A stretch of 64,000 bases of DNA from the NCBI RefSeq assembly GCF_045037415.1, contig NZ_CP173438.1, one strand, 5' to 3'. Of the stretch, positions 21,157 through 53,461 are shown one piece after another; the first letter of the stretch is position 1, and every line of letters starts with the position of its first letter. The translations under genes were made by a program, and so were the position numbers. The notes under the pieces are model-generated. The model saw only the letters and a program-made list of their open reading frames with translations. It was not told where the DNA came from and made no database searches. Origin of the DNA: Escherichia coli. Its GTDB lineage: Bacteria > Pseudomonadota > Gammaproteobacteria > Enterobacterales > Enterobacteriaceae.

Positions 21157-21171
21157 TTACCGTTGAGGTAA
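21157..21171. promoter_or_regulatory. Palindromic operator-like motif TTACC-GTTGA-GGTAA at the leftward early promoter
   Basis: Perfect copy; abuts a -10-like element of a minus-strand promoter whose -35 TTGACA is at 21194-21199. Confidence 0.6.
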
Positions 21172-21290: not shown

Positions 21291-21875
21291 TTATTGTTTG
21301 TTTTTTTCGTTCTGGTTGATGACAAATTCAATGTAACTTTCGATCTTTGCTTTCTCGGTTTCGGGTAACAATGCGTAGCGTGAGCGGTCATAGTTGATAG
21401 TCGCAGGGTCGTGCGGGTGAATCAGTAGTTCATATCCGTGACGCCCGAATGCGGATGCAACATTCTCCAGGGTGGAAATGGAAACGCTGACCTCATTGTT
21501 TAACAGGCGGCTGATTGTCACCTGGGCGACGCCGGATGCGCGGTGAAGTTTTCCCTGAGTTGAAAGGTCGCGGCTTTCACTCATCCAGCGTTCCAGGTTG
21601 TGAGCTGCCAGCTGACCAATGTCGCTTGGGCCGACAGGCTGAAAACCTTCCTGAGAAAGCGAGCGATCGATATCAAGCCAGTTACGGGGTTTATTGGCGG
21701 CAGCTTCAATTTTTCGCGCAACCTGGTCGCCGATAACCTTCTTGCCAAGAGCCCAGCGGTTTACCAGATTTGCCTGAGTTCCAAGTTTTTCTGCCATCCG
21801 CGTCTGAACACCATTGAATTCACGGTCGATCAAGTCGTTGAGATTTTGCCTGCGGACGTCCTGGATACTTTTCAT
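21291..21875 (-). CDS. Prophage repressor-like regulator with two HTH modules and no peptidase S24 domain
   Basis: 194 aa; two HTH-like segments (..TRMAEKLGTQANLVNRW.. and ..ASGVAQVTISRLLNNE..); divergent from the Cro-like gene; no Ser/Lys autocleavage domain. Confidence 0.6.
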   Translation of the reverse strand: MKSIQDVRRQNLNDLIDREFNGVQTRMAEKLGTQANLVNRWALGKKVIGDQVARKIEAAANKPRNWLDIDRSLSQEGFQPVGPSDIGQLAAHNLERWMSESRDLSTQGKLHRASGVAQVTISRLLNNEVSVSISTLENVASAFGRHGYELLIHPHDPATINYDRSRYALLPETEKAKIESYIEFVINQNEKNKQ

Positions 21876-31219: not shown

Positions 31220-31296
31220 CTGGCGTGGCATGCAGGATTCGAACCTGCGACCAACCGCTTAGAAGGCGGTTGCTCTGTCCAACTGAGCTAATGCCA
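31220..31296 (-). tRNA. tRNA-Arg (anticodon UCU), phage-encoded
   Basis: Folded by hand: acceptor GTGGCAT/ATGCCAC, D-arm GCTC..GAGC, anticodon stem ACCGC/GCGGT with loop CTTCTAA (anticodon TCT), T-arm GCAGG-TTCGAAT-CCTGC, discriminator G and encoded CCA. Confidence 0.85.
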
Positions 31297-31619
31297 CAAC
31301 GCTGAGAGCACTTAGCCTGTTAAGGCGCCACACTTTGTCGCGGCTCCATAAATGCTCTCATCGTTGTACCCTCGTCTCTTCCGAGGCGTCACACCGAATC
31401 GCCGGGATGGTGAATCCCCGTGCGCGGAATAAAACCGCTCGACTTGCACATTCCGGCTACCTGGTTCGTTTGCCCGAGCAAGGGAGGGTGCCCCTTAAAC
31501 GTATCCAGACCGCTATCGGCGCATGTGCCATACGCCGTACTGCTCAAAATAAAAGCTCACTCCACCTGTTCAATTTAACGACAATCCAGTCAGGTTAGTA
31601 ACCGGAATGAACTCTTTGG

Positions 31620-49293: not shown

Positions 49294-49308
49294 TTACCCT
49301 TGAGGTAA
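49294..49308. promoter_or_regulatory. Palindromic operator-like motif TTACC-CTTGA-GGTAA
   Basis: Perfect copy 60 bp upstream of the 210-aa gene start. Confidence 0.55.
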
Positions 49309-49380
49309 TAGTACGCTATTCACCCCCAGTCTGCAATCTGTACAGAATTATTTAAAGGCACATCCCTGTGCCGCCGCCCG

Positions 49381-50037
49381 TCAGAAGAACCCTGCCTTGT
49401 CGTTGATGTACTCCGCGTGCGTCTGGATATCACGCAGGCATTTGCTCACACCAACGATGTAGCAGAACATGGTGGTCAGCTCCGCCGCCGCGCCCGATAC
49501 GTCGTGCCCGTCGTCCTGTAACTGGTTCAGCAGATTCATCAGCAGTGAGTTCTCCGTCAGGCCGAGAACACCAGACGGCGAGTGAATCAGGCTGCGGTAG
49601 CCGGGCTTCAGTGGGGCACTGTATTCTTTTTTGTCTTCCAGCTTGATCGCCTCCATAATGGCGGGCATGAAGCCTGACAAGACCTTCTCCACTTTTGTTT
49701 CTTGTTGTCTTAAACGTTTCTCGCATTCAATGAAGTAGCGTCGCACCTGGCGACCTTTTTCGTTACGCTCGACCATCGCCAGCTCTTTGGCTGTATCAAG
49801 GGTGAGGTGGTACTCTTTGCGGTTGTGGCCGCCTCTACCAGATGTTTGCTTTCCCAAATTGGAAAGCAAAATATAGTCTTGATTTTCAATGAATTCGTAT
49901 TCTGATATGCGATTTGTAATCCATGCTGCAAACACCTTTTTAACACCTAAAAAAGCGTGCAGATCGCGGGCATTACAAAGTAGGGCTGTTTCGTTAGATA
50001 TAGTGCCGTTGAATACGGGGATGAGTTGAGCGTTCAT
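49381..50037 (-). CDS. Antirepressor (AntA-like N-terminal domain plus KilAC-like C-terminal domain)
   Basis: N-terminus ..[36 protein letters not shown].. matches the AntA/AntB pattern as recalled; C-terminal about 80 aa homologous to the downstream 85-aa protein. Confidence 0.65.
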
Positions 50038-50310
50038 GATGGCGTCTCCACTTAGCGAATTACATCACCACCGCTGAGAACCAATCAGATGGTGGTGAAC
50101 TGAACGGAGTTGGTCTTACCGGCCTAAGTGGTACCGGCGTCCTTTCGGACCCCCATTCAGCCCACCATAATTCTGGCATGACTGTGCTATACGCATAAAA
50201 AAACCACGTCTGGCGTGGTATGCGCCACTTAGTAATCCGGGAGAACCAATCCCGGCACTGGATTTTGCCAGTGCCCGATTACTATGGCACAAGAGGAGTG
50301 CGATGTAAAT

Positions 50311-50325
50311 TTACCGCAAAGGTAA
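50311..50325. promoter_or_regulatory. Palindromic operator-like motif TTACC-GCAAA-GGTAA nested inside a larger palindrome
   Basis: Perfect copy flanked by ggagtgc (50294-50300) and gcactcc (50332-50338). Confidence 0.55.
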
Positions 50326-50356
50326 ATATAAGCACTCCATTTGGTAATTTCAAACC

Positions 50357-50614
50357 TTATCTGGTTTGTTTTCGTAATTGTTCGGCACAATAGTCGAGAT
50401 GTGTTTGCAGATCCTGCATAGACATCTGTGAGCTGGTGACGTAGTTAATCAGTGCAGTCAGTTCGGCAAGTGGGCCATCGACATTAAATCCATCCTTATC
50501 GAGATCCCGGAGTAATTTCATCAAGTGCGATCCCTCCACCAGTGACCTGACGCCTCCCGGCGTGTGAATCCTTTCGGTAAATCCGTCTTCCAGTGGATAG
50601 TGATACTGCTGCAT
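50357..50614 (-). CDS. Small antirepressor-like protein (KilAC-like domain only, 85 aa)
   Basis: MQQYHYPLEDGF..; about 45 percent identical to the C-terminal domain of the 218-aa antirepressor (shared ..IH(S/T)P.GV..L.E.S.LM.LL..L..DG..V.G..AELT..Y..DxQTH..Y); LexA box 22 bp upstream. Confidence 0.6.
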   Translation of the reverse strand: MQQYHYPLEDGFTERIHTPGGVRSLVEGSHLMKLLRDLDKDGFNVDGPLAELTALINYVTSSQMSMQDLQTHLDYCAEQLRKQTR

Positions 50615-50635
50615 CTTATCTTCTCCATGCAATAA

Positions 50636-50651
50636 CTGTATATTTATACAG
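50636..50651. promoter_or_regulatory. LexA (SOS) box CTGT-N8-ACAG
   Basis: aaCTGTATATTTATACAGta, near-perfect match to the E. coli LexA consensus; overlaps a TATAAA -10-like element of the minus-strand promoter. Confidence 0.75.
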
Positions 50652-50690
50652 TAGCAAATAATTTGTTTGCTATCCAGCACGTTTTGCAAA

Positions 50691-50705
50691 TTACCTGAAA
50701 GGTAA
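50691..50705. promoter_or_regulatory. Palindromic operator-like motif TTACC-TGAAA-GGTAA between antirepressor-like gene and tailspike
   Basis: Perfect copy in the divergent intergenic region. Confidence 0.55.
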
Positions 50706-50809
50706 TATCTATTCGTATTTACAGCCTTTCTATCCATATGTGGTTTTCCAGGTAATAGAATAACCAGATATGCGGCGCAACGGGTGCTGCGACTATCTGG
50801 AGATTTAAC

Positions 50810-53461
50810 ATGACGGTTTCAACCGAAGTTGACCACAACGAATACACCGGTAACGGAGCTACGACATCATTTCCGTATACCTTCCGTATTTTCAAAAAAT
50901 CCGACCTGGTTGTTCAGGTGTCTGACCTGAACGGGAACGTAACAGAATTGGTTCTGGATACTGACTACACAGTAACCAATGCTGGAGGATATAATGGCGG
51001 TAATGTAATTCTGTCGAAGGCGTTGGCTAACGGTTATCATATTTCTATATCACGAGAGCTCCCGGTTACGCAGGATACTGATTTGCGTAATCAGGGTAAG
51101 TTCTTCGCTGAGGTACATGAAGACGCGTTCGATAAACTGACAATGCTTATTCAAAAGTGTTTTTCATGGATGAGGTTAGCACTTATAAAACCAAGCATTC
51201 TGGCTAACTATTATGATGCAAAAAATAATAAGATATCAAATCTAGCAAATGCCACTGACAGAAACGATGCTGTCAATAAAGGTTATGTTGATGATCTTTT
51301 TACTGGAGGTGTAACGCCTACATCTAACAGCGCTAAAAACGATATTTTTACAAATCACCAAAGAAAGATTGTAGCTACGATGCCGCTTCTTTTTCCTGAA
51401 TATGATGCGATTATGGCTGCTAACCCGTCAGCAACTTATATGTATCCTCAAGGATTCTGCGTTAGCGAAGATTTGATATACATCACTTATCCATTTGAGC
51501 CTAAACAGACGAATAATGTCGTCGCAGTATTTAACATATCTGGTATTTATCAAGGTTATTTCTATGTTCAGGCTGGCGGCCCAGGCTTCGCTGCTGAAGG
51601 AATCGTGGTTACGTCAGACTATGGCCCCAAAAAAATGTTTGTTGGTCACACAAACGGAATACTGCGTGAATTTAATATGGAGGGGGCATTATACGGAAGC
51701 AATCTGCCTCTTGTACAAAACCATGATGTTGGATTATTCAACCAGTTCAGCTACAGAAGAGGTATATGGCTCGTTGAGCAGAATGCGCCAGAAGTAGGAC
51801 AGAAAATCACAAGAACTGTACTTGCAGTGTTCGACAGTGGTTTCAATCGCCTGTCAACTATAACGCTGCCGTTACATGATGTTGGGTATGTAACTAAAAG
51901 CACCTCACCTTATGCGCCTTATTTCAACAAGCGTCAGGGTATTGCGGTAGGTGATAACTACTTTGTCTGCGGCTATGGCGGCTTCATAGCTGATGGGGCA
52001 GGAAGCGCAGGATATAACGAATATCAGGGCAGCAAAGTTTTTAACCCTGACGGTACAAAGCGAACTGAATCAATGCTTCATCCTCAGGCCATGATGGATT
52101 TAATGAAAGCCGCAGGATTGAACGTCACTCGCATAGAAAATGAAGGCGTTTGTGTTTCTCAGGATGGAAAATCCATTTATTCACTTTACATTCATCAGGA
52201 AAGAACTGGCTCTGAACCTTACAATTCAGGTTTGGTTATTTTCGAAGATTTCTCCACTGATAAAGATGCTATCGATTTTACACCTGCATCCAGGCTTTAC
52301 CGCGGATTTGATATCGATCACGCGAGCATTGGGGTATATCCCCGTAGTGCGAAGGGGATTGTTAACCCTGTAGATGGTACGTTGTTCACTAACATGACTG
52401 AAATTCTTCGCTATATGCAGGAGATGAGTCAGAAGGCATTTAATTTTTACACAGGGACTGTCAGCATTGCTGATATATCTGGCGTGGCAATCCCTTCCAG
52501 CACATATGTTGAAATACTGAATGCGAATAATCAGACTTTTATAGTCAACTATTATTCATCTGATAGTGGCATTAGTTATTTGGTTGCAACTAATCCTTCT
52601 GGTGACTTTGTATTTGTGCGCCAGCGACCGGCACAGTGGGCATCTAACTTAACCATTCAGCAAAACGCAGATCCTGATACAAACCAATTAAACCGCATCA
52701 CTGCATCATCATATGCCGGTGCAACTACAAACTCTCAGAAAATATTGGTCCTTGACCAGCAGGCTACAGCTAGCGCAAATAGCTTGGTATTGGGCGGTAG
52801 TTCTTCTGTGTTTAGGTCTGCCACCACGGTGGATATTGCATGCAACAGCGACCCGACAGCATTGGGAGGAACCATACGCTGGCGGTTTTATGATACAGGT
52901 CTTCGCCCGTTTGCTGACAATACCTATAATTTTGGTCAGGCATCGTTTCGTATTAAAGACGCCTACTTTGCAAATGCCCCAACCGTTTCATCAGATGCCA
53001 CGCTGAAAACCAATCCCGAGGCAATATCAGATTTAAGTGAAATGCTTTCTTCTGATAGAGACAGCATTCTTGATGCCTGGGGCGATATTTCTGTTGTGGC
53101 GTATCGATGGCTCGACGCTATATCCATGAAGGGCGATGGTGCCAGATGGCATTTTGGCGTCATGGCTCAGCAGGTAAGGGATGTATTCTTGGCGCACGGA
53201 ATTGATGGAACCAGATTTGGCCTTCTTTGCTATGACGAGTGGGATGATATTTTTGAGCCGGTAATCGCGACTAAAGAGATTACCGATACGTCTGGTGAGT
53301 TGGTCACCGTCGAATATGACACCGGAGAACAGAGGCTGGTTAAAAAAGCGGGTAGTTCATGGGGTATACGGCCTGACCAGTGCGCTTGGCTTGAGGCTGC
53401 ATATCAGCGCCGTCGATGCGATCGTATTGAAGAGCGACTCGAACTATTGGAATCAAAATAA
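50810..53461 (+). CDS. Tailspike / tail fiber with C-terminal intramolecular chaperone (peptidase S74-like) domain
   Basis: 883 aa; conserved phage fiber N-terminal anchor (..YTGNGATTSFPYTFRIF..); C-terminal ..DAWGDISVVAYRWLDAI..GDGARWHFGVMAQQVRDVF.. matches auto-cleaving chaperone domains of tailspikes as recalled. Confidence 0.8.
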   Translation: MTVSTEVDHNEYTGNGATTSFPYTFRIFKKSDLVVQVSDLNGNVTELVLDTDYTVTNAGGYNGGNVILSKALANGYHISISRELPVTQDTDLRNQGKFFAEVHEDAFDKLTMLIQKCFSWMRLALIKPSILANYYDAKNNKISNLANATDRNDAVNKGYVDDLFTGGVTPTSNSAKNDIFTNHQRKIVATMPLLFPEYDAIMAANPSATYMYPQGFCVSEDLIYITYPFEPKQTNNVVAVFNISGIYQGYFYVQAGGPGFAAEGIVVTSDYGPKKMFVGHTNGILREFNMEGALYGSNLPLVQNHDVGLFNQFSYRRGIWLVEQNAPEVGQKITRTVLAVFDSGFNRLSTITLPLHDVGYVTKSTSPYAPYFNKRQGIAVGDNYFVCGYGGFIADGAGSAGYNEYQGSKVFNPDGTKRTESMLHPQAMMDLMKAAGLNVTRIENEGVCVSQDGKSIYSLYIHQERTGSEPYNSGLVIFEDFSTDKDAIDFTPASRLYRGFDIDHASIGVYPRSAKGIVNPVDGTLFTNMTEILRYMQEMSQKAFNFYTGTVSIADISGVAIPSSTYVEILNANNQTFIVNYYSSDSGISYLVATNPSGDFVFVRQRPAQWASNLTIQQNADPDTNQLNRITASSYAGATTNSQKILVLDQQATASANSLVLGGSSSVFRSATTVDIACNSDPTALGGTIRWRFYDTGLRPFADNTYNFGQASFRIKDAYFANAPTVSSDATLKTNPEAISDLSEMLSSDRDSILDAWGDISVVAYRWLDAISMKGDGARWHFGVMAQQVRDVFLAHGIDGTRFGLLCYDEWDDIFEPVIATKEITDTSGELVTVEYDTGEQRLVKKAGSSWGIRPDQCAWLEAAYQRRRCDRIEERLELLESK

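Follow-up and report, generated by a model that had tools for sequence, protein, structure and literature searches.

What occupies the gap of about 320 bp (positions 50038-50356) that separates two minus-strand antirepressor genes in Escherichia coli (RefSeq GCF_045037415.1, contig NZ_CP173438.1), and what its many hairpins may be for, was the question raised by this locus. The locus lies in an epsilon15/phiV10-like (Uetakevirus) prophage, and was analysed within a window, i.e. the whole stretch of DNA considered, of 64,000 nucleotides (nt). A preliminary description had listed four structures in the gap (a long imperfect hairpin, a palindrome around an operator copy, a GTCC-tttc-GGAC hairpin and a minus-strand intrinsic terminator), and had suggested a small RNA or a regulatory leader controlling the downstream antirepressor of 218 amino acids (aa), here called ant. 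The gap is read here, with a probability of roughly 85% and on the strength of its sequence, as an antisense-RNA control module of the P1/P7 immI type, encoded on the minus strand. Its contents (an IsrK-type RNA, a c4 antisense RNA, promoters and a repressor operator) would most likely act together to keep the downstream ant gene untranslated. The locus is a well-preserved copy of a known type of switch and not a new one: the conspicuous structured gap is explained as a textbook antisense-RNA immunity module in which each hairpin gets a role.

IsrK and c4 RNAs in the gap

A window-wide Rfam scan at the curated thresholds gave three matches: one tRNA elsewhere in the window and, in the gap, isrK and C4, both full length, on the minus strand and 24 nt apart. 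The RNA features and the regulated gene were the following.

50197-50274 (-), IsrK-type small RNA or leader (Rfam RF01394, 60.9 bits with a gathering score of 50, covering positions 1-77 of the 77 in the model)
50274-50255 (-), IsrK hairpin 1 (fold and covariation)
50254-50238 (-), second IsrK hairpin, the a1 hairpin (fold)
50242-50249 (-), a1 site UUGGUUCU in the loop of the second IsrK hairpin, complement of a' with one bulged U
50225-50232 (-), b1 site CUAAGUGG, perfect 8-nt complement of b'
50197-50219 (-), intrinsic terminator with a 6-bp stem, a 5-nt loop and T7 (terminator scan)
50088-50172 (-), c4 antisense RNA (Rfam RF01695, 61.2 bits with a gathering score of 45, covering positions 1-87 of the 87 in the model)
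50124-50131 (-), b' antisense element CCACUUAG, loop of c4 hairpin 2 (complementarity)
50110-50116 (-), a' antisense element AGACCAA, single-stranded after hairpin 2 (complementarity)
50077-50084 (-), a2 site UUGGUUCU just downstream of c4, complement of a' with one bulged U
50065-50072 (-), conserved box GGUGGUGA, complementary to the c4 3' arm (alignment and pairing)
50046-50055 (-), b2 site CUAAGUGG (50055-50048), complement of b', overlapping the Shine-Dalgarno GGAG (50049-50046) of ant
49381-50037 (-), regulated gene ant, encoding the 218-aa antirepressor (Pfam AntA, E = 4e-26; phrog_377 “anti-repressor Ant”, E = 3e-66)

The minus-strand RNA of 337 nt folded at -134 kcal/mol, compared with -98 +/- 5.7 kcal/mol for its shuffles (z = -6.4; none of 100 folded as stably). 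The minimum-energy fold of c4 (-41.2 kcal/mol, z = -5.5) was identical to the family consensus: a 17-bp closing stem around two hairpins, with a single-stranded stretch after hairpin 2. On the plus strand the same segment folded no better than chance (z = -1.9), so that the c4 folding signal is strand-specific, and a plus-strand RNA was rejected. The IsrK segment (z = -3.6 on the minus strand) contained the two 5' hairpins, the terminator hairpin and the U-run of the RF01394 family, which is further characterised by Hfq binding and by short and read-through isoforms. Four open reading frames (ORFs) in the gap (39, 58, 57 and 53 aa) were rejected as coding sequences, their frames being unconserved among relatives while the RNA structure is conserved.

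All four structures of the preliminary description were recovered at or near the positions first given for them, all on the minus strand, and could be reassigned. The long hairpin and the terminator (ACCACGCCAGACGTGGT followed by seven T, 50219-50197) belong to IsrK; the GTCC-tttc-GGAC hairpin (GUCCGAAAGGAC, 50150-50139, minus strand) is c4 hairpin 1; and the palindrome GGAGTGC (50338-50332)/GCACTCC (50301-50295), which encloses TTACCTTTGCGGTAA (50325-50311), belongs to the promoter/operator region. The long hairpin (50226-50280) stood as a real inverted repeat but not as a single hairpin: the RNA folds into a three-way structure, with adjacent hairpins at 50274-50255 and 50254-50238 and an outer stem pairing 50287-50277 with 50240-50226. 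The suggestion that the 218-aa antirepressor is controlled by a small RNA or a leader was supported in both parts, by the isrK and C4 matches of Rfam, by loop complementarity and by covariation. The same description had proposed an Rfam scan and RNA folding as checks, and these gave two families above their gathering scores and a structure beyond chance.

A third Rfam family, the c4-a1b1 motif (RF03163), scored 36.2 bits at 50287-50234 in a permissive scan, below its gathering score of 46.7, and overlapped the isrK match; on P1 itself this model scored 51 bits. Of 110 related loci, 109 had a run of six or more T in the 70 nt before c4; this run corresponds to the IsrK terminator. This terminator is proposed to end the short IsrK and to attenuate read-through into c4 and ant.

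The mature c4 was predicted at 50166-50091, its ends being placed by analogy with the annotated P1 c4 RNA. The closing stem is followed by CCA (CACCACCA), which is consistent with the processing that characterises the C4 family, namely a 5' end produced by RNase P and a 3' end at CCA. No convincing -35/-10 pair was found on inspection by eye between the IsrK terminator and c4; for this reason, and because the homologous RNA of Gifsy-1 depends on the isrK promoter, a c4-specific promoter was rejected. Downstream of c4, the sequence TGGTG within the GGUGGUGA box (GGUGGUG(A/G)) was invariant in 54 of 54 aligned loci. Pairing of this box with the c4 3' arm CACCACC was kept in 96% of cells, with covariation in the 3-bp stem inside it. 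The resulting hairpin (50065-50100) would present a2 in its loop, and would be mutually exclusive with the c4 closing stem. P1 also keeps the pairing of the c4 3' arm with a downstream box, using other letters (CCUGCCACC with GGUAGCAGG).

Complementarity and co-variation of c4 loops and their targets

The b' element was complementary to b1 and to b2 at 8 of 8 Watson-Crick positions (duplex energies of -14.2 and -13.2 kcal/mol respectively), and the ATG of ant lies at 50037, 10 nt beyond b2/GGAG. For a', pairing with each of a1 and a2 spanned 7 positions and left one U bulged. Fourteen related phage loci were fetched by similarity, and 120 more came from IMG/VR, which was scanned with the conserved c4 stem; 110 distinct loci were analysed. 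The isrK-c4 tandem was present in all 14 of the related phage loci examined.

The 110 distinct loci fell into 36 types by their b' and 16 by their a'. The locus's own b' had a Watson-Crick complement of 7 nt or more downstream in 100 loci and upstream in 84, and its own a' had one of 6 nt or more upstream in 106 and downstream in 108, while matches between the loops of one type and the flanks of another averaged only 4.2-4.6 nt. Among the 14 loci, whenever the c4 loops differed both target pairs differed complementarily. Examples of b'/b pairs were CCUUUUAG with CUAAAAGG, CCGAUAAC with GUUAUCGG, and CCUUGUUAG with CUAACAAGG; examples of a'/a pairs were ACGCCAA with UUGGCGU, GUCUCAA with UUGAGAC, and GUUCCAA with UUGGAAC. 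In the relatives, b2 ended 7-11 nt ahead of the downstream start codon or overlapped the start codon. The c4 loops and both target pairs thus change together, which is the basis of phage heteroimmunity.

Covariation of the stems was measured on an alignment of 54 distinct loci. Pairing in the 17-bp closing stem of c4 reached 100% of cells, 7 of its pairs having changed on both sides; for IsrK hairpin 1 it was 95% of cells, with compensatory changes in 7 of 7 pairs. None of 500 shuffles reached the observed scores, and slid controls were 35-46% paired. The poor figures obtained for the terminator and for c4 hairpin 1 reflect alignment register and not lost pairing. A lack of covariation in related prophages, named beforehand as the finding that would speak against an RNA, was not encountered: loops and targets co-varied in the 110 loci, and the stems showed compensatory changes.

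The bulged U of the a-sites is a peculiarity of this locus. Relative to phage phiv142-3 and to the AR_0086 prophage, there is an extra T at 50245 (a1) and another at 50080 (a2), and a' of c4 is unchanged; the E. coli 447 prophage, a close relative, has the a1 insertion only. Isolated single-base insertions or deletions relative to the AR_0086 prophage (98.4% identity over 20 kb) occurred only at 50080, 50245 and 50618, the third lying between the Shine-Dalgarno and the ATG of the gene for the small antirepressor of 85 aa. Given almost no other insertions or deletions with respect to a close relative, general assembly noise is unlikely as the source of the a-site insertions; a context-specific assembly error at GGTCTC is a possible one. 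A c4 with a compensating a' (AGAACCAA) was searched for in IMG/VR, where 32 matches were obtained, 0 of them in a c4 context; the a1 variant was not found in IMG/VR, nor the a2 variant in JGI metagenome contigs. That the locus is a naturally retuned switch, in which the a1 decoy and the a2 site of the mRNA each gained the same U while a' stayed as it was, is a tentative idea that we consider doubtful. If the insertions are real mutations, they suggest stepwise compensatory evolution that keeps the competition of decoy and target for c4 balanced, and a true retuning would be direct natural evidence that IsrK and ant mRNA compete for one antisense RNA.

Promoters, proposed mechanism and alternative explanations

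Two tandem promoter candidates and a repressor operator precede IsrK.

50348-50353 (-), -35 TTGAAA of the distal promoter candidate (10/12 matches, 17-bp spacer)
50325-50330 (-), -10 TATATT of the distal promoter, its last T being the first operator base (promoter scan)
50311-50325 (no strand), prophage repressor operator TTACCTTTGCGGTAA (TTACC-N5-GGTAA; 10 copies in the window, epsilon15 annotation)
50295-50338 (no strand), outer palindrome GGAGTGC/GCACTCC flanking the operator (fold and comparison)
50281-50309 (-), proximal promoter candidate with -35 TTTACA (50309-50304), TG (50289-50288) and -10 CATAGT (50286-50281) (promoter scan)

The proximal candidate has a 17-bp spacer and a TG-n-CATAGT arrangement, with a predicted start at ~50274; the distal candidate (50353-50325) was the stronger of the two in the promoter scan. 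In 104 of 111 related loci, a sigma-70-type promoter (at least 8/12 matches) was spaced identically from the first IsrK hairpin. The Uetakevirus operator lay upstream of that promoter in 45 of these loci, the remaining loci being in different phage backgrounds. In 36 operator-bearing variants the layout of a -35-like element and a -10 abutting the operator was kept despite differing sequences, and in the window a -10 also abuts the operators at 21157(-), 24324(+), 28457(+) and 49294(-).

By pattern search, the operator motif TTACC-N5-GGTAA was found in 10 copies in the window (21157, 21219, 21931, 24262, 24324, 28457, 31620, 49294, 50311 and 50691), against 0 expected, and the GenBank record of epsilon15 annotates the homologous site as a repressor binding site. 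Two pairs of operators are spaced 62 bp, and three operators flank the repressor gene (21291-21875). The copy at 50311-50325 sits between the tandem promoters, overlapping the start region of the distal one and abutting the -35 of the proximal one. As RNA, the operator palindrome folded at -20.2 kcal/mol (z = -4.9). Its outer part was kept in about half of the operator-bearing relatives and lost in others; three other variants had different flanks that were complementary again, and phiV10 had a perfect repeat with 18-bp arms. The outer palindrome may be an extended operator or an RNA hairpin ending the upstream gene.

The c4 antisense RNA of the immI region of P1 and P7 was reportedly described by Citron and Schuster in 1990 and 1992. 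P1 features were taken from the annotated record NC_005856. P1 immI shows the same order of elements (operator Oc4, P2c4, P1c4, a1, b1, c4, a2, b2), and an antirepressor is the regulated function in both. In P1 the C1 operator Oc4 overlaps the -35 of P2c4, c4 has 77 nt, and the first start codon lies 10 nt after b2. The proximal -10 is TATAGT in P1 and CATAGT here, at the same distance from the first hairpin and in the position of P1c4 (formerly P51b). Between b1 and c4, P1 too has a terminator-like hairpin, and P1 matched the isrK model weakly, at 35.1 bits compared with 60.9 bits here, where the terminator is strong and canonical; IsrK is therefore the counterpart of the P1 a1b1 leader. Both c4 RNAs are tRNA-like; hairpin 2 carries b' in its loop and precedes a', a2 follows c4 immediately, and b2 lies over a ribosome-binding site. 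Unlike P1, the locus has no icd, and b2 thus lies directly over the ribosome-binding site of ant. The regulated protein, which combines AntA with an SPC32H-Ant-like domain, is not the P1 antirepressor, a repressor and operator of the epsilon15/SPC32H type stand in place of C1 and its operator, the host is an integrating podovirus and not a plasmid myovirus, and the a/b sequences differ. The locus would accordingly be one that works like P1 immI but is not an orthologous operon. A P22-type immI (Mnt/Arc/sar) was rejected: beyond C4, isrK and c4-a1b1 there was no Rfam match with E < 2 in 49300-51000, and no arc/mnt-like ORFs were seen among the listed ORFs.

If the P1 mechanism applies, transcription would start at the promoter intrinsic to the module (-10 CATAGT, ~50274) and, in the absence of repressor, also at the upstream promoter whose -10 abuts the operator. 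Most transcripts would end at the intrinsic terminator, giving a 78-nt IsrK that displays a1 and b1, and those that read through would hold c4, to be excised as a tRNA-like RNA of ~76 nt. The b' (CCACUUAG) and a' (AGACCAA) elements of c4 would then pair with a2 and b2 on ant mRNA; with b2 lying over the Shine-Dalgarno, translation of ant would be blocked and the prophage repressor would stay active. IsrK, which has both target sequences, would act as a decoy, titrating c4 and releasing ant translation, and the a/b sequence type would set specificity (heteroimmunity). From family membership, RNA structure with covariation, three-way complementarity with co-variation, conservation of promoters and operator, and the identities of the flanking proteins, we infer transcription, processing, translational repression, decoy action and the effect, if any, of the repressor on each promoter; the P1 mechanism is the best-supported reading of these.

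The isrK locus of Salmonella prophage Gifsy-1 (isrK-orf45-anrP) has a similar arrangement: a three-hairpin IsrK that ends in an intrinsic terminator, a structured segment reached by read-through, and finally an antirepressor gene. There, supplying the short IsrK in trans turns on translation of the read-through isrK-...-anrP mRNA and leads to prophage induction; STnc1160, a processed RNA downstream of IsrK that occupies the position of c4, depends on the promoter of isrK (PMC4825925). The short IsrK is complementary to the structured segment, where STnc1160 lies. The P1 mechanism, applied to the present locus, fits these results, i.e. the activation by IsrK in trans and the origin of STnc1160 from the isrK promoter. 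The differences from Gifsy-1 are the orf45 frame, unconserved and of 3 codons here from the conserved AUG of AUGGUGGG, the Uetakevirus repressor operator preceding the promoter here, and other neighbour genes without antQ; isrJ had no match downstream in the Rfam scan of the window, unlike at the Gifsy-1 locus.

Several points weigh against the P1 mechanism at this locus. The pairing at the a-sites is imperfect: the extra U, unmatched by a', costs ~3-4 kcal/mol per site in a simple duplex model, and the a-interaction may be weakened by it. The operator lies just upstream of the proximal -35, with its centre at ~-44, a position from which repression, sparing or even activation of the proximal promoter by the repressor would look alike in the DNA. 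The model published for Gifsy-1 credits a translated “orf45” coupled to anrP, and not relief of c4 repression (PMC4825925), and the two accounts, orf45 coupling and c4 repression, are not reconciled experimentally.

Applied to the present locus, the Gifsy-1 activator model would have the mRNA locked, with the short IsrK opening the ribosome-binding site of an orf45-like ORF that overlaps c4 and activating ant through coupling, and with c4 being no repressor in trans. Genetic and biochemical evidence supports it in Salmonella Gifsy-1 (PMC4825925), and an ORF of 39 codons (50179-50060) does span c4 here, ending 22 nt before the ATG of ant. This ORF, however, is only found in another frame and from an upstream AUG; the ORF from the conserved AUG of AUGGUGGG has 3 codons here and stops inside c4 in many relatives. 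Any ORF spanning c4 was present in only 49 of 98 loci, with neither frame nor length conserved, and what is conserved instead is the RNA structure and the complementarity of loops and targets. Coupling is moreover not required where b2 directly overlaps the Shine-Dalgarno of ant, and a processed stable STnc1160 at the c4 position is reported in the Gifsy-1 study itself (PMC4825925). Since the orf45 counterpart is short and unconserved, the coupling model was ranked low for this locus and is judged unlikely. The CI RNA of P4, with seqA/seqC, provides another precedent, being a processed small RNA with complementary sites up- and downstream that is detected by the same Rfam profiles, as is seqA (PMC10111431). 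In P4, CI causes premature transcription termination on replication genes, whereas the downstream site here covers the ribosome-binding site of an antirepressor. By analogy, pairing of c4 with a1/b1 or a2/b2 might chiefly govern termination or read-through, at the IsrK terminator or further downstream, and not translation, a possibility raised by the Gifsy-1 authors (PMC4825925) and in keeping with the terminator conserved between b1 and c4 in 109 of 110 loci. As the chief mode of control this is improbable: b2 lies consistently over the Shine-Dalgarno or the start codon, which points to occlusion of translation as it occurs in P1, the terminator scan found no terminator-like element in the stretch from c4 to ant, and constitutive STnc1160 did not reduce the effect of IsrK in Gifsy-1 (PMC4825925). 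Termination and a translational block are not mutually exclusive mechanisms. In P1, the translational block leads to Rho-dependent polarity.

It could also be argued that control is mainly exerted at the DNA level, by the operator, the promoters and a terminator for the upstream LexA-controlled gene, and that the RNA motifs are decayed remnants acquired by recombination. The module is indeed mosaic (epsilon15 lacks it, its gp19 gene being followed directly by a terminator), each a-site is mismatched to c4 by one inserted base, and the operator palindrome has DNA-level symmetry. Decay is nevertheless hard to see in two RNAs that score above the curated thresholds, in an intact c4 fold and in b sites that are perfect 8-mers; ant is intact as well, its product (WP_001555611.1) occurs in other E. 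coli prophages, and a conservation of 98-99% in dozens of genomes is unlike decay. This explanation is therefore very improbable, and the antisense module of the P1 type remains the reading adopted here.

Neighbouring genes and prophage context

The preliminary description had called both flanking genes antirepressors, and the protein comparisons agreed. The upstream gene and its control element were as follows.

50614-50357 (-), 85-aa small antirepressor gene (PDB 5D50_E “Anti-repressor protein”, E = 4e-47)
50651-50636 (-), LexA box CTGTATAAATATACAG, a perfect CTGT-N8-ACAG preceding the 85-aa gene

The 85-aa gene most likely starts at the ATG at 50614, the listed ORF of 126 aa being an upstream over-extension. 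In the 218-aa protein, an N-terminal AntA domain is followed by a C-terminal domain of the SPC32H-Ant type that is homologous to the 85-aa product: residues 137-213 matched PDB 5D50_E (E = 8e-14) and were 42% identical to the 85-aa neighbour. The repressor gene at 21291-21875 encodes an HTH_3 domain protein homologous to chain A of PDB 5D50 (E = 4e-42). The locus thus appears to pair an SOS-gated small antirepressor with an RNA-gated larger one directly downstream, a homologous domain being common to both.

Both this repressor (E = 4e-42) and the 85-aa antirepressor with its LexA box have counterparts in the SPC32H system (PDB 5D50), the repressor being homologous and the antirepressor near-identical. 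SPC32H, an epsilon15-like Salmonella podophage, has a LexA-controlled antirepressor system, according to the citing paper (Kim & Ryu 2013, cited in PMC7380047). As far as could be established from that account, its switch is described with the LexA-controlled small antirepressor only, whereas here a second one with the same C-terminal domain, putatively controlled by c4, lies directly downstream. Epsilon15-like E. coli prophages would in this way combine two routes to repressor inactivation, an SOS-gated small antirepressor and an RNA-gated larger one that has the same repressor-binding domain.

The best phage match of the host element was phiv142-3 (98%). The region was 98-99% conserved in dozens of E. 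coli genomes, and the ant ORF was intact, with a protein identical to that of other E. coli prophages (WP_001555611.1). Epsilon15 has the small upstream gene without the RNA-ant module, its gp19 gene being directly followed by a terminator, and phiV10 and many E. coli prophages carry the module. In the GenBank records of phiV10 and phiv142-3 these RNAs are unannotated, so that the practical value of the present assignment is better annotation; current understanding of the switch is unchanged.

The co-occurrence of C4 and isrK has been noted for APSE phages (record annotation; PMC7313666) and for P4-like satellites (PMC10111431), and c4 and c4-a1b1 were catalogued in 2010 (PMC2864571). IsrK and c4, which had been described separately, are linked here as parts of one device. 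For the Uetakevirus ZX5, overexpression of the antirepressor was found to lower lysogeny, the RNAs and LexA not being mentioned (PMC9782041). No description of the module in the Uetakevirus group was found in the searchable papers.

Other features of the prophage were observed in passing. An ORF of 210 aa (49234-48602, minus strand) lies directly downstream of ant, has no Pfam match and is preceded by an operator (49308-49294) with an abutting promoter (TTGCAG, 17 bp, TACTAT); this gene is thus putatively repressor-controlled. The tRNA gene detected in the Rfam scan lies inside the prophage at 31224-31297 (-) (Rfam tRNA, 73.3 bits), and its AR_0086 counterpart is annotated as tRNA-Arg. Finally, the segment 50976-53643, which comprises the distal part of the tail-spike/tail-fibre gene (50810-53461) and ~180 bp beyond it, did not align to the otherwise 98%-identical AR_0086 prophage, which indicates a swapped receptor-binding module.

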